Made by a program: the position numbers and the translations under genes. A stretch of 64,000 nucleotides of DNA from Patescibacteria group bacterium (lineage in GTDB: Bacteria > Patescibacteriota > Minisyncoccia > UBA6257 > 2-01-FULL-56-20). Positions 100-59,381 of the stretch are shown here, one piece after another; the stretch's first letter is position 1, and each line of letters begins with the position of its first letter. The notes beneath the pieces are model-generated. The model was not told the DNA's origin. It ran no database searches and was given only the letters and a program-made list of their open reading frames with translations. The stretch is from the NCBI GenBank assembly GCA_024654525.1, contig JANLHI010000021.1, positions 1,969 to 65,968 on the forward strand. The letters are read 5' to 3'.

Positions 100-345
100 A
101 ACCCGCCTGTGTTCATGCGAACTATGGCGAGGCGAAGTGGGGAAGCGGGTGAGAATCCCGCACAGTGCCGCTACGGTGAAGTCCCGCCTGTGTTCAATAG
201 AACTTCGGCGAGACACAAGTCCGAGTACCACTCTTTGGAATGTTTCGTGTGCGTCCCCGCATTCTGCGGGGCAAGTCTCTCGAGCAAGAGGCAAGCCTGT
301 TTGTCGAACAGACTCCCCCTTGCGGTGGGTTTTTTATTTCCGAAT
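100..345 (+). promoter_or_regulatory. Candidate cobalamin (AdoCbl) riboswitch with expression platform, upstream of the 398..2257 gene
   Basis: Core AGUGGGGAAGCGGGUGAGAAUCCCGCACAGUGCCGCUACGGUGAAG (about 137-182) matches the conserved cobalamin-riboswitch core (GGGAA..GGUGA.AAUCC..ACAG; compare T. tengcongensis AGUGGGAAAGUGACGUGAAAUUCGUCCAG). A B12-box-like AAGUCCGAGUACCACUC follows at about 218-234. A strong hairpin CCCCGCAUUCUGCGGGG (256-272) and a GC-rich segment plus U-run (about 312-336) precede the start codon at 398. Downstream genes are B12-related. Confidence 0.6.
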
Positions 346-29620: not shown

Positions 29621-29692
29621 AGCCGGTGGTCGGATTTGAACCGACGACCCACGCTTTACGAAAGCGTTGCTCTGCCCCTGAGCTACACCGGC
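29621..29692 (-). tRNA. tRNA-Thr (anticodon CGU)
   Basis: Minus-strand sequence GCCGGTGTAGCTCAGGGGCAGAGCAACGCTTTCGTAAAGCGTGGGTCGTCGGTTCAAATCCGACCACCGGCT folds as a cloverleaf. Anticodon loop TTCGTAA, T-loop GGTTCAAATCC. CCA is not encoded. Confidence 0.85.
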
Positions 29693-29852: not shown

Positions 29853-32800
29853 ATGCCTAAATTCGTACACTTACATACTCACTCCCACTATTCGCTTCTC
29901 GATGGACTCGCAAAAATCGAAGACCTTGTGGCACGCACCAAAGAGCTCGGCATGGATACGCTTGCATTAACCGATCATGGCGTACTCTATGGTGCAGTAG
30001 AATTTTATAAAAAAACGAGAGCGGCGGGCATCAAACCCATCTTAGGAGTCGAAGCATACATTGCACCGAAGGAACGCCAAAATAAAGACGCGGGAGACAG
30101 ATATTATCACCTTATTCTTCTTGCCGAAAATAATACGGGGTGGAAAAATCTCATAAAACTCGTAACAAAAGCACAGCTTGAAGGGTTTTATTACAAACCA
30201 CGGATGGATAAAGAACTTCTTCGCGAATATCACGAAGGCATTATCTCACTTTCAGGATGCTTCTCCGGAGAACTTGCGCGCGCCATTCTTGCGGGAGATT
30301 CCGGCGAAAAGATACTTAAGGAATATCAGGATATCTTCGGTCCGGAAAATTTCTTTATCGAGATAGGGTACCATCCTCACATCAATCGCGCAGAACACGA
30401 CAAACTTTGGAACGGCTTGATTGCACTTTCAAAAAAAACGGGGGCTCCTCTTGTCGCCACACAAGACCTTCACTATGCGCGCCCCGAAGACCGCGACTAC
30501 CATGATATATTGCTTGCGGTTCAAACCGGGAGCAATTTGAGCGACCAAGACAGACTCACCCTCAAAGCGGATGACTTTTCCATGACGTCTCCCGAGGATA
30601 TGGCAGAAAAATTCAAAGATATTCCCGAAGCGGTAACGAACACCGTTCGCATCGCCGAACGATGCAATGTAACACTGGAACTTGGAAAAACTCAACTTCC
30701 CGAATTTCCAAAACCCGAAGGGATAAGCGCGAACGAGTATGTCCGCACGCTTGCCACCGAAGGATTAACACGCCGATTTCCCGGTATCACATGCACACAA
30801 GAAGCGAAAGATCGTCTTGAGTATGAGCTTGGCGTTATAGAAAAAACAGGATTTGCGGATTATTTCCTTATTGTCCAAGACCTTACCGGATGGGCGCGCG
30901 CGCATGGCATTGCGGTCGGTCCGGGCCGTGGTTCTGCGGCGGGAAGTCTGGTTTCCTATGTTCTGGGTATTACCGATATTAATCCTTTGAAATACGGATT
31001 ACTCTTCGAACGATTCTTGAATCCGGAGCGTATTCAAATGCCCGATATCGACATTGATTTTGCCGATGCGCGAAGAGACGAAGTACTTGCCTATGCCCGT
31101 CAAAAATACGGAGAAGACCACGTAGCGCAAATAATTACATTCGGGACTATGGCAGCACGTGCCGCAGTGAGGGATGCGGGACGGGCAATGGGTTTGCCGT
31201 ACGGTTTTTGCGATCAAATCGCGAAACTCATCCCTTTCAATGCATCGATCAAGGAATCTATTGACCAAGTACCCGAGCTTGCGGACATGGCTAAACAAAA
31301 CGAAGAAGCGCGCCGACTCTTGGACGCCGCACAACATCTTGAGGGTGTCGCACGACATGCATCGGTACACGCATGCGGTACGGTGATTACAAAAAAACCC
31401 CTCACCGAATATCTTCCTCTTCAATATGCCCCGCAAGACAGAGCGGTGATTATTACACAGTTTGAAATGCATTCCGTGGAAGACTTAGGACTTCTTAAAA
31501 TGGATCTTCTTGGGCTCCGAAACCTCACTATCATCGAGGAAACCGTGCGACTTGTGAAAAATATCCGCGGCGAAGATATTTATATTTCCGATCTTCCACT
31601 CGACGATGCCGCGACATATTCCCTTCTTCAAGCGGGTAACACTACCGGTGTGTTCCAATTCGAATGCCTTTCGGAAGAAACGATCGTATCCAATACCACC
31701 ATTAAAAAGCTCTACGAGCGGAAGAATAAGAAGACACTCGAGTCGGTATATGTCGACGAAGGGAAAGTACATAAAAATAAAATCCTTGGTGTCGCGAAAA
31801 GCGGCGTGAAAGACGTGTATGCGCTTGTCGCCGAGAACGGGTGGTATATCAAATCTTCTGCGGACCATAATTTTCTTACCGAGAACGGATGGAAGAAACT
31901 TTCGGATATTCGACCCGGCGAAAAGATACTCATGAAGACAAAAGCAAAGCACCTCGTCTATAACGCGTGCGCACGTTGCGGGAGGCAAATTAGCGGACAA
32001 AAAGAAGGACACAGCACATTCTGCTACACGTGTTCAGCTCGCGTATATAGCAACCCCAGCAAACCGATCTCGCGCACAAAAATGAAGGTCGCGCGAACGC
32101 GGTTTTTCGAACGAGGCGGAACAGTATGGAACGAAGGCGTAACGACCGAAAATAACGAGACTTGGCGTGCAACCGCGGAAAAAATATCGCATGCGCTCAC
32201 TGGCGTATCCATTGAAACGCGATGGGGCAAGAAAAAAGCCGCGGAGATAAAAGCCCGGTTGTCGCAAAGGTTTAGAGGCGCGGGGAATCCAATGTTCGGC
32301 AAACCTGCTCCCCACCGCAAAGGAGGCGTGCGAGGAGATTTGGGCCACTATGTGCGTTCAAATTGGGAAGCGGATTTTGCACGAATCCTCAAACTGTATG
32401 GAATCGCATATGAATATGAACCGAGATCCTTTACTCTTCAAAACTCGCGGGGAGAGGTAATGCATTATACTCCCGATTTTTACGTGAAAGCCACCAATAC
32501 TTTCTATGAAATAAAGGGATGGCTCCACGATATTGACCAGAAAAAAATGGACCTTTTCCGGCAACAGTATCCTGAATACAATTTTATTCTCATTAACAAA
32601 ACAAAGTTTGCGGAACTGGCGATGCGCTACCGCAGTCTTGTCGCTTGGGAATGTCCGAGGGTTCCTACAGAACGAAGTTTTAAATTTATAAAAGTGAGGG
32701 AAGTGCGGTACGCAGGAAAAGAAGAAACGTATGACATCGCGATGGAAGCACCCGGAAATAACTTCGTGGCAAATGGATTCGTCGTGCATAACTCGAGCGG

Positions 32801-34172
32801 CATGCGTCGCTATATGAAAGATATCCATCCCACCGAACTGGAAGATTTAATTGCGCTTGTGGCACTTTTCCGCCCCGGTCCCATGGAGCTTATTCCCACA
32901 TTTATCAAACGAAAACGCGGTGAAGAAAAAATTGTGTATCTTCATCCTCGACTGGAACCTATTTTGAAAAACACCAACGGCATTGGCGTATATCAGGAGC
33001 AAATGATGCAGATTGCCCGCGATCTTGCAGGCTACACACTCCCCGAAGCAGACACGCTTCGAAAAGCAATCGGTAAAAAAATAAAATCGCTTCTTGACGA
33101 ACAGAAAGTAAAACTTACGAATGGCATGATTAAAAATGGTATTCCTCAGAAAACCGCGGAAGCGATTTGGGAACTTTTTCCTCCCTTCGCACGCTACGGA
33201 TTTAACAAGTCGCACGCGGCATGCTACGCCCTGATCGGCTATCAGACCGCGTATCTTAAAGCTCATTATCCGGTTGAATCCATGGCGGCTCTTTTAAACG
33301 CAGAAGTCAGCGATATCGAACGTATTGCGTTTTTAGTCAATGAGGCACGGCAAACCGGAATATCCATCCTTCCTCCCGACGTAAACAGCAGTTTGGTCAA
33401 ATTCTCTCCGAATGGAGAAGAAGTGCGTTATGGGCTTCTCGGTATAAAGAATGTCGGGGAACAAATTGCGCAAGCAATAGTGGAAGAAAGGATACGGGGA
33501 GGCGCCTTCGAAAACTTCACTTCTTTTCTTGCACGCATTCAACATAAAGATTTAAATAAAAAATCACTCGAAAGTTTAGCAAAATGCGGCGCACTTGAAT
33601 CTCTTGATATAGAGCGCAATCAAGCTATCCAGAACATGGACGATATTGTCCGCTTTGCAGGAGTTGCGCGGAAAACCGCATCCCAAACCAATTCACTTTT
33701 TGGTAATTCAACCGCATCACTCTCCATTAAATTAAAACCCGCTCCTCCCGCAACGCGAGAAGAAAAACTCGGATGGGAAAAGGAGCTCCTTGGATTTTAT
33801 CTTTCTGATCATCCCCTGAATTCATTCAAGGAACAACTTGCTACTTTGCGTGCGCGAACGCTTACCGAACTTCGCACTATTAAAAACGAGAGTCTTACCA
33901 TACGCGCCGCAGGACTTATTACCACCATCAAAAAAATATTCACGAAAAAAGGAGATGCGATGATGTTTGTGACTATTGAAGACTTTTCCCCGCAACCCTT
34001 TGAAATAGTAATTTTCCCCCGCGTACTCGAAAAAACACAGGCAGTGTGGCAAGAAAACAATGTAGTCCTTCTTCAGGGAAAAATGTCTTGGCGTGGCGGA
34101 GAACCAAAAATCATCTGCGACGATGCAAGGAAATTGGAATTGCACCACACGGAGAAAAAAACGCCCGCTTAA
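29853..34172 (+). CDS. dnaE: DNA polymerase III alpha subunit, interrupted by an in-frame intein
   Basis: N-terminal PHP domain (HLHTHSHYSLLDG), polymerase core motifs, OB-fold C-terminus. 1439 aa including a 376-aa intein, leaving about 1063 aa of extein. Confidence 0.9.
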   Translation: MPKFVHLHTHSHYSLLDGLAKIEDLVARTKELGMDTLALTDHGVLYGAVEFYKKTRAAGIKPILGVEAYIAPKERQNKDAGDRYYHLILLAENNTGWKNLIKLVTKAQLEGFYYKPRMDKELLREYHEGIISLSGCFSGELARAILAGDSGEKILKEYQDIFGPENFFIEIGYHPHINRAEHDKLWNGLIALSKKTGAPLVATQDLHYARPEDRDYHDILLAVQTGSNLSDQDRLTLKADDFSMTSPEDMAEKFKDIPEAVTNTVRIAERCNVTLELGKTQLPEFPKPEGISANEYVRTLATEGLTRRFPGITCTQEAKDRLEYELGVIEKTGFADYFLIVQDLTGWARAHGIAVGPGRGSAAGSLVSYVLGITDINPLKYGLLFERFLNPERIQMPDIDIDFADARRDEVLAYARQKYGEDHVAQIITFGTMAARAAVRDAGRAMGLPYGFCDQIAKLIPFNASIKESIDQVPELADMAKQNEEARRLLDAAQHLEGVARHASVHACGTVITKKPLTEYLPLQYAPQDRAVIITQFEMHSVEDLGLLKMDLLGLRNLTIIEETVRLVKNIRGEDIYISDLPLDDAATYSLLQAGNTTGVFQFECLSEETIVSNTTIKKLYERKNKKTLESVYVDEGKVHKNKILGVAKSGVKDVYALVAENGWYIKSSADHNFLTENGWKKLSDIRPGEKILMKTKAKHLVYNACARCGRQISGQKEGHSTFCYTCSARVYSNPSKPISRTKMKVARTRFFERGGTVWNEGVTTENNETWRATAEKISHALTGVSIETRWGKKKAAEIKARLSQRFRGAGNPMFGKPAPHRKGGVRGDLGHYVRSNWEADFARILKLYGIAYEYEPRSFTLQNSRGEVMHYTPDFYVKATNTFYEIKGWLHDIDQKKMDLFRQQYPEYNFILINKTKFAELAMRYRSLVAWECPRVPTERSFKFIKVREVRYAGKEETYDIAMEAPGNNFVANGFVVHNSSGMRRYMKDIHPTELEDLIALVALFRPGPMELIPTFIKRKRGEEKIVYLHPRLEPILKNTNGIGVYQEQMMQIARDLAGYTLPEADTLRKAIGKKIKSLLDEQKVKLTNGMIKNGIPQKTAEAIWELFPPFARYGFNKSHAACYALIGYQTAYLKAHYPVESMAALLNAEVSDIERIAFLVNEARQTGISILPPDVNSSLVKFSPNGEEVRYGLLGIKNVGEQIAQAIVEERIRGGAFENFTSFLARIQHKDLNKKSLESLAKCGALESLDIERNQAIQNMDDIVRFAGVARKTASQTNSLFGNSTASLSIKLKPAPPATREEKLGWEKELLGFYLSDHPLNSFKEQLATLRARTLTELRTIKNESLTIRAAGLITTIKKIFTKKGDAMMFVTIEDFSPQPFEIVIFPRVLEKTQAVWQENNVVLLQGKMSWRGGEPKIICDDARKLELHHTEKKTPA
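31665..32792 (+). mobile_element. Intein in DnaE (Cys1...His-Asn, followed by Ser+1) carrying a homing-endonuclease-like insert with a Zn ribbon, a NUMOD-like segment and a PD-(D/E)xK-like motif
   Basis: The insertion splits the conserved GVFQFE / SSGMRRY extein junction. Block A CLSEET, block B SADHNFLT, block F/G ETYDIAMEAPGNNFVANGFVVHN then S. Internal CARCG...CYTC Zn ribbon and YTPDFYVKATNTFYEIKG. Confidence 0.8.
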
Positions 34173-59306: not shown

Positions 59307-59381
59307 GCCCTCGTGGTGAAATGGATATCATACTTGGCTTCGAACCAAGAGGTCCGGGTTCAATTCCTGGCGAGGGCACCA
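59307..59381 (+). tRNA. tRNA-Arg (anticodon UCG), CCA encoded
   Basis: GCCCTCGTGGTGAAATGGATATCATACTTGGCTTCGAACCAAGAGGTCCGGGTTCAATTCCTGGCGAGGGCACCA. Anticodon loop CTTCGAA, T-loop GGTTCAATTCC. Confidence 0.85.

Follow-up and report, generated by a model that had tools for sequence, protein, structure and literature searches.

What kind of nuclease is carried by an intein that interrupts dnaE, the gene for the alpha subunit of DNA polymerase III (Pol III), in a member of the Patescibacteria? The question is raised by a 64,000-nucleotide stretch of contig JANLHI010000021.1 (assembly GCA_024654525.1), referred to here as the window, in which a first-pass annotation had proposed a DnaE intein whose endonuclease insert was neither of the LAGLIDADG type nor clearly HNH, and was instead reminiscent of the EDxHD (I-Bth0305I-like) homing endonucleases. 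Our analysis indicates that the element is very probably a mobile class-1 intein in the middle-finger loop of DnaE of a Liptonbacteria-like Patescibacterium, and that it carries a homing-endonuclease module of a type not described for inteins.

The host gene is a single unbroken open reading frame (ORF) of 1439 codons (window 29853-34172, forward strand), whose 1439-aa product contains the PHP, DNA_pol3_alpha, DNA_pol3_finger (in two pieces), HHH_6 and OB domains expected of DnaE (Pfam). Residues 605-980 of this ORF, encoded in frame by 376 codons (1128 bp, nucleotides 31665-32792, +), start with Cys and end with His-Asn, the next extein residue being Ser. The first-pass annotation had given exactly these limits, and the empty allele of a close relative (described below) has the same codon boundary. 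The Intein_splicing family of Pfam (PF14890), an intein profile of the kind suggested there as a check, is matched with 65 bits against a cut-off of 35.8 (E = 8.8e-18). TIGR01443 lies above its cut-off on the C-terminal half of the intein (17.8 bits, cut-off 15.6), and TIGR01445 just below its own (23.8 bits, cut-off 24.5). In a search of PDB sequences, intein residues 12-93 and 341-376 match the solved DnaB, RecA, DnaE and DnaX mini-inteins, unlike the central 240 residues, which match none of them.

Thirteen inteins, the one in the window and those of loci L001-L012, were aligned, and all values of invariance and identity given below for inteins refer to this set. C1, H68, D357, H375 and N376 are invariant in it, and Ser+1 is found in 13/13 copies. 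Among the splicing blocks claimed at first, C1, the terminal His-Asn and Ser+1 are present as described; the TxxH motif of block B is not, since the window copy has S65-A-D-H68, with Thr or Ser at position 65 in the other copies. The short motifs quoted from the insert (CARCG..CYTC, HALTGVSIETRWGKK..GNPMFGK and YTPDFYVKATNTFYEIKG) were all found. When the intein is excised in silico, the resulting 1063-aa DnaE aligns without gaps across GVFQFE-SSGM with the Pol III alpha subunits of Taq and E. coli, and the empty allele reads FQFE/SAGM (here and below a slash marks the splice junction), which agrees with the proposed location inside a conserved DnaE motif. This Pfam E-value, and the presence of the element in 13 further copies at this site, leave no credible role for chance, and on its sequence the segment is a class-1 intein in DnaE.

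The insertion point corresponds to E612/S613 of the E. coli protein and to E671/S672 of Taq (counted through the alignment). In E. coli, the middle-finger loop F609-S613 touches the template, and the classical mutator allele dnaE173 is E612K. An insert of 376 residues in this template-contacting loop should disable the polymerase, and splicing is therefore presumably obligatory. The known DnaE inteins (cyanobacterial split and LAGLIDADG-type; PMC4760082) share with the window intein the host protein, the finger-domain location and the class-1 HINT domain, but the window intein has another nuclease type and another site: FQ[FL]E/S lies about 150 residues upstream of YGFNKS, the site of the cyanobacterial split DnaE intein. 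The site could not be matched to the letters a-g of the DnaE intein survey of Novikova 2016 (PMC4760082), a text that gives no sequences, and that survey did not cover the host phylum.

The 240-residue insert consists, in order, of a Zn ribbon, three NUMOD3-like helices and a PD-(D/E)xK nuclease (Table 1), and it is the last of these that answers the question of the nuclease type. Phage_endo_I (PF05367) matches residues 229-318 (30.4 bits with the whole intein and 29.9 with the insert, cut-off 29.1; Pfam), and in PHROGs the match is to phrog_9019, 'Holliday junction resolvase' (4.6e-18). We then used a family profile made from the insert and 19 relatives (a 20-sequence alignment), for which the sole nuclease matched across the PDB is T7 endonuclease I (1M0D, E = 8e-11); this entry, 1FZR and 2PFJ are structures of this enzyme, the gp3 protein of bacteriophage T7 (PF05367). 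Three motifs are aligned between insert and T7 enzyme, vRSnWE with FRSGLE, tYTPDF with TYTPDF, and fYEiKG with FVETKG (numbering of 2pfj_A, 15-96). In the profile alignment E235, D271, E282 and K284 of the intein pair with T7 E20, D55, E65 and K67, the catalytic residues of the T7 enzyme; the four intein residues are invariant in the 13 inteins and invariant, or nearly so, in the 20-sequence alignment, which includes free-standing relatives.

The structural comparison points in the same direction. In an AlphaFold2 (AF2) model built with the 20-sequence alignment, the nuclease core has a predicted local distance difference test (pLDDT) score of 91-98; a single-sequence AlphaFold model of the whole intein, with a pLDDT of 33, was discarded. 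In a Foldseek search of the PDB, ranks 1-4 are occupied by T7 endonuclease I, with probabilities of 0.97-0.99, and other restriction-fold nucleases come next. Among the predicted viral structures of BFVD, Foldseek gives 83 matches at E <= 1e-3, the top ones being phage 'Endonuclease I' proteins of about 300 aa and Bacillus phage G gp28. These are aligned over more than 200 columns, and therefore the whole module, not just the core, has phage counterparts. On sequence, catalytic residues and modelled fold, we assign the intein nuclease to the T7 endonuclease I family. The PD-(D/E)xK nuclease proposed in the first-pass annotation is thus genuine, with its PF05367 match and classical E...D...E-x-K active site.

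The two enzymes also differ. T7 endonuclease I is a free-standing, structure-selective junction resolvase of 149 aa that forms a domain-swapped dimer, whereas the intein domain is fused in frame behind the Zn ribbon and NUMOD3-like helices, and has an extra conserved GG(F/V)RxDLGHYVRS hairpin. This last segment, G-x-R-x-D-L-x-H-Y-V-R (window 32325-32357, intein residues 221-231), has nine columns invariant in the 13 copies, and usually reads GGFRxDLGHYVR, with GGVRGDLGHYVR in the window copy. It stands just before RSxWE, outside the part alignable with the T7 enzyme, is modelled as a beta hairpin by AF2, and is common to the intein-borne and free-standing members.

The family assignment bears directly on the alternative that the insert is a Vsr-type homing endonuclease of the EDxHD, I-Bth0305I-like family. 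The insert and this family share their order of modules, with a NUMOD-type DNA-binding region at the N-terminus and a restriction-fold nuclease at the C-terminus, both belong to the wider PD-(D/E)xK superfamily, and a Vsr-like structure (3hrl) does appear far down the Foldseek list, at E = 0.22. However, no Pfam match to Vsr, DUF559, DUF2726 or I-Ssp6803I was obtained at E <= 1, 3R3P is absent both from the PDB sequence searches (E <= 10) and from the 50 listed Foldseek PDB matches, and the active site has the classical E-x-K lysine and no EDxHD histidine; the match to T7 endonuclease I (8e-11) brings all four catalytic residues into register. We regard membership of the EDxHD family as extremely improbable; of the likeness to I-Bth0305I proposed at first, the architecture of a modular N-terminal DNA-binding region and a C-terminal nuclease stands, and the kinship does not.

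EDxHD (Vsr-like) homing endonucleases are found with split inteins and in phage introns (Dassa 2009; Taylor 2011; PMC3384342). They resemble the window nuclease in having a C-terminal restriction-fold domain after a modular DNA-binding region, and in being found with replication-gene inteins and as free-standing phage genes. They differ in belonging to another branch of the superfamily, with a His general base, and in giving no sequence or fold match to the window insert; they are also associated with split inteins or with the antisense strand of inteins, whereas the window nuclease is in frame. Another homing enzyme with a classical PD-(D/E)xK active site is I-Ssp6803I (PF11645, PDB 2OST), but it is intron-encoded and tetrameric, and has no accessory DNA-binding modules; PF11645 gave no Pfam match at E <= 1, and neither the PDB sequence searches (E <= 10) nor the listed Foldseek matches contain 2OST. 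A precedent is given by F-CphI and the DHHRN homing endonucleases, which are built on the resolvase motif of T4 endonuclease VII and are counted as a seventh family (PMC6083498), and in the endonuclease VII-like homing endonucleases of actinophage inteins, whose genes are out of frame (bioRxiv 10.1101/2025.01.02.630785). In these the catalytic domain of a phage Holliday-junction resolvase was recruited for homing, and a resolvase-type nuclease is associated with inteins, but their beta-beta-alpha-metal fold is unrelated to PD-(D/E)xK, and again the window nuclease differs in being in frame.

According to a 2025 survey, intein nucleases are of the LAGLIDADG, in-frame HNH, Vsr-like or endonuclease VII-like type, and a census of PD-(D/E)xK proteins treats PF05367 solely as a junction resolvase. 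A search of open-access papers and bioRxiv for inteins that carry an endonuclease I or PD-(D/E)xK nuclease gave none, and it gave no homing endonuclease of the T7 endonuclease I type either.

In front of the core, the Zn ribbon has the four cysteines claimed at first, all invariant in the 13 copies. An HNH reading of this CxxC...CxxC segment was considered and rejected, as its spacer of only 14 residues is too short and PF01844 is not matched in Pfam; a PHROG match named 'HNH endonuclease' (7.6e-5) is confined to the Zn-ribbon residues 92-136. Neither intein nor insert matches LAGLIDADG_1-3 or PF01844 in Pfam at E <= 1, in line with the earlier statement that the insert is of neither type, and the antisense and out-of-frame ORFs across the intein have no family match, so that no nuclease is hidden there. 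The NUMOD3-like segment of the first-pass annotation is recovered as a Pfam NUMOD3 match (PF07460) at residues 188-213, although at a borderline score (18.1 bits in the whole intein and 21.3 in the isolated insert, cut-off 20.4). It is the last of three helices predicted by AF2, which are modelled at low to moderate confidence. Precomputed PF07460 annotation exists for two relatives, P0002 and P0005, and one viral predicted structure matched by Foldseek in BFVD is named 'Nuclease associated modular domain 3'. By analogy with other homing enzymes, the Zn ribbon and the NUMOD3-like helices presumably read the target DNA.

Table 1. Features of the interrupted dnaE gene (positions are those of the window; residues, unless stated otherwise, are those of the intein)
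Feature	Position	Strand	Evidence
dnaE N-extein, 604 aa, ending ...NTTGVFQFE	29853..31664	+	Pfam PHP, DNA_pol3_alpha and first ~48 DNA_pol3_finger positions; aligns to Taq and E. coli
Whole intein, 376 aa, class 1 (C1...H375-N376)	31665..32792	+	Profiles; exact in-frame insertion relative to the empty L016/L017
HINT N-terminal half, residues 1-95, with C1 and block B S65xxH68	31665..31949	+	Mini-inteins 1mi8, 4o1r and 3ifj match residues 12-93
Zn ribbon, residues 96-130, C102-x2-C105...C120-x2-C123	31950..32054	+	Four Cys invariant, 15/35 columns invariant; weak matches to Zn-ribbon families
Three-helix NUMOD3-like region, residues 131-215, presumed DNA-binding linker	32055..32309	+	Pfam NUMOD3; AF2 helices
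T7-endonuclease-I-like PD-(D/E)xK core, residues 216-330	32310..32654	+	PF05367, PHROG 9019, PDB profile, pLDDT 91-98, Foldseek; 51/115 columns invariant
Predicted catalytic codons E235, D271, E282, K284	32367-32369, 32475-32477, 32508-32510, 32514-32516	+	Alignment to T7 endonuclease I
HINT C-terminal half, residues 331-376, block F D357, block G H375-N376	32655..32792	+	Matches C-terminal parts of DnaB, DnaE, DnaX and GyrA inteins; TIGR01443
dnaE C-extein, 459 aa + stop, from Ser+1 (SSGMRRYM...)	32793..34172	+	Remaining finger domain, HHH_6, OB; Ser+1 in 13/13 copies

In order to see how widely the intein is distributed, species-representative genomes were scanned, which gave 14 loci, all in metagenome-assembled genomes (MAGs) of Patescibacteria labelled Saccharibacteria, Liptonbacteria, Paceibacterota, Parcubacteria or Berkelbacteria. 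A full intein is present in 13 of the 14 (12 complete and one ended by the contig end), with 59-74% identity and at the same site, FQ[FL]E/C...HN/S. The fourteenth locus, L014, has a mini-intein with HINT halves 72% identical and without the entire nuclease module, and P0325 is another mini-intein at the same dnaE site. The dnaE gene of L014 (4564-9153) contains two inteins, the second being of the LAGLIDADG type at GFNK/C...HN/SHAACYA; this GFNK/S site is one residue away from the cyanobacterial split-intein site. An exhaustive search of 1.84 billion cluster representatives gave 31 matches below 1e-30, and the eight that were checked by Pfam (8/8) are DnaE proteins with the intein at position 40-49 of the finger profile. 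A word-indexed protein search recovered no more than four intein relatives, all of them fragments, and did not return the protein encoded in the window. The latter (P0145), which was returned by a search with the spliced DnaE, is encoded on a 74-kb contig and is named only 'DNA polymerase III subunit alpha [Patescibacteria group bacterium]' at NCBI, and the sequences in general are already public, annotated only as DnaE or hypothetical proteins. In P0291 and P0332, the intein-bearing DnaE is fused to a C-terminal uracil-DNA glycosylase (UDG) domain.

The relatives closest to the host protein have an empty site. A search with the spliced DnaE gave 119 nearest relatives (66-89% identity, 1034-1099 aa), none of which has an intein domain, and the named entries among the closest are Liptonbacteria. 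The contigs of the 89%-identical relative (L016/L017), from which the empty allele was taken, are syntenic with the window over genes for an asparaginase, DnaE, a 135-aa protein, a tRNA synthetase, GreA and a glycosyltransferase. Within the window there is no second copy of the intein or of the nuclease.

The nuclease module is conserved among the inteins. Mean pairwise identity is 69% in the nuclease core (51/115 columns invariant) and 70% in the Zn ribbon, as compared with 62% and 70% in the two splicing halves and 57% in 800 flanking DnaE residues, so that core and ribbon equal the splicing domain in conservation and exceed the flanking DnaE; the helical linker, with 51%, varies most. The inteins are more similar to each other than the exteins are in 65 of 78 pairs, and the two identities are correlated (r = 0.62). 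Estimates of dN/dS in the nuclease, available for three pairs only, range from 0.075 to 0.107. Judged from these sequence comparisons, the nuclease is under purifying selection.

These values have to be set against the possibility that the nuclease is a relic, decayed or inactive, and that the intein now passes on by vertical inheritance alone. Many inteins carry dead endonucleases, the mini-inteins at this very site show that decay occurs, and the correlation between intein and extein identities implies a history that is partly vertical. Against this, invariance extends to the four catalytic residues, to the four Zn ligands and to 51 of the 115 nuclease columns in copies only 59-74% identical, dN/dS is about 0.1, and empty sites are found in the closest DnaEs, with the closest inteins in more distant ones. 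A remnant therefore seems unlikely to us, and an active homing endonuclease of an undescribed class is, from the sequence, the most likely interpretation of the nuclease. Conservation, dN/dS, empty sites in the closest relatives and nuclease-less derivatives together form the pattern that would be expected of a homing cycle, with invasion, fixation, nuclease decay and loss, and so speak for such a cycle indirectly.

The same nuclease is also found outside DnaE. Four proteins (P0290, P0297, P0298 and P0299) have an in-frame intein with this nuclease between exteins of the form ...YVE[FY]G/C...HN/T..., and P0290 (L019, 6001-7677) sits among capsid and Mu-F-like genes. Exteins of the P0290 type resemble phage HK97-gp10 with a Pfam score of 18.3 bits, below the cut-off of 21.4. 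In P0382 (772 aa), an intein with the same nuclease interrupts the P-loop of a small GTPase (GVFN/C...HN/SGKTSLINAL), an extein that is fused to SIS domains. Gene 37 of the halovirus HVTV-1 (L015, 2611-3336) was considered as a second intein host and rejected, being a free-standing T7-endonuclease-I-like protein of 241 aa; its name in one record, 'replication factor C small subunit', is probably a mis-annotation, and further records of this virus have it as endonuclease.

In addition, we found at least 400 free-standing proteins of 215-340 aa, nearly all unnamed, that have the same core together with Zn-ribbon or NUMOD-like N-termini. They stop at ...WEGK, exactly where the intein runs on as ...WECP into the C-terminal part of HINT. 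Two of the free-standing members have phage-like surroundings, in which genes for ThyX and a nucleoside deoxyribosyltransferase and a GIY-YIG/NUMOD3 gene occur. One of the two, P0016 (305 aa) at locus L018 (5111-6028, 6127-7749 and 7844-8197), has ThyX and the nucleoside deoxyribosyltransferase as neighbours and is directly upstream of a phage-like split dnaE. This dnaE consists of two genes, divided at the GPGRGS motif by an intein that is naturally split; the N part ends GPARG/CFVPETRV... and the C part reads MKLKNK...GIAVHN/SGGGSLINYLL. An attractive, if hypothetical, origin for the window element would be the capture, by a dnaE intein, of a free-standing homing gene located near dnaE.

This wider distribution also bears on the idea that the nuclease was recruited for a host function, the excised intein serving, for example, as a junction-resolving or repair activity in a reduced genome. 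The catalytic domain is of the junction-resolvase type, Patescibacterial genomes are small and the domain is strongly conserved. However, the element is absent from the 119 nearest relatives, its Zn-ribbon and NUMOD3 modules are those typically seen in homing enzymes directed to a sequence, and the same module is borne by inteins whose host genes, a phage gene and a GTPase gene, are unrelated, as well as by free-standing phage-like genes beside dnaE. In our view a host function is very improbable. The odds are about even for a broader proposal, in which T7-endonuclease-I-type nucleases with Zn-ribbon and NUMOD3 modules constitute a further unnamed structural family of homing endonucleases, parallel to DHHRN, that moves between free-standing phage genes, some of them beside phage dnaE, and in-frame positions in DnaE, tail-completion-like and GTPase inteins, the window element being a natural in-frame representative. 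On this proposal, the derivation of its core from a junction resolvase may allow the enzyme to combine sequence tethering with structure-selective cutting.

For a mobile intein with an active nuclease, the following course of events can be proposed. The DnaE precursor would be translated and the HINT domain would excise itself, by an N-S shift at C1 giving a thioester, transesterification by Ser+1 and cyclisation of N376, which would restore GVFQFE-SSGM. The free intein would then bind and cut the uninterrupted dnaE junction sequence of an intein-less allele. In the manner of I-TevI, I-HmuI and I-Bth0305I, the site would be recognised through the Zn ribbon and the NUMOD3-like helices, and it would be hydrolysed in a metal-dependent reaction by E235, D271, E282 and K284, either by a dimer, as with T7 endonuclease I, or by a monomer cutting the two strands one after the other. 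Recombinational repair would copy in the 1128-bp intein, and copies that lose the nuclease would persist as mini-inteins. We infer the splicing of the precursor from the intact blocks and from the role of dnaE as the gene of the replicative polymerase, and we likewise infer site-specific cleavage, the DNA-reading module and the oligomeric state.

Several points weigh against this proposal. Splicing and cleavage are both predictions from sequence. The single-sequence PF05367 score is only marginally above its cut-off, the NUMOD3 score is borderline with respect to its own, and the first 120 residues of the AF2 model are of low confidence. The Foldseek E-values in the PDB are modest (4e-3) and the rmsd is high (~21 A), which may result from the superposition of a closed monomer model on a crystal chain that is domain-swapped. 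Most pairs are saturated at synonymous sites, and the excess of intein over extein identity could partly reflect constraint rather than transfer. Finally, T7 endonuclease I is structure-selective and acts as a domain-swapped dimer, which is not readily reconciled with a sequence-specific double-strand break made by an intein-embedded relative.

Elsewhere in the window, an AdoCbl-II (cobalamin) riboswitch aptamer is predicted at 122-238 (+) with 38.1 bits, just above the Rfam gathering score of 36.5, and there are two tRNA genes, at 29621-29692 (-) and 59307-59378 (+). The first of these precedes the dnaE start by about 160 bp and is encoded on the other strand.

We thus describe a canonical intein whose in-frame nuclease is of an undescribed class and belongs to a sizeable unnamed family, a testable addition to the catalogue of homing endonucleases and not a new principle. 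Inteins are established as carriers of LAGLIDADG and HNH nucleases; the Vsr-like and endonuclease VII-like ones recognised more recently have a split, antisense or out-of-frame arrangement. A member of the T7 endonuclease I family encoded in frame would extend this list by a new class. It would show, for the second time and independently, that the core of a phage Holliday-junction resolvase can be converted to homing, and it would give a large group of unnamed phage proteins (about 300 aa) a function that can be tested. Programmable nucleases are built on a layout of this kind, in which small DNA-binding units are joined to a compact nuclease. In addition, an intein in the template-contacting loop of the sole replicative polymerase of an uncultured, ultra-small bacterium would offer a clean system in which to study the coupling of splicing and replication.

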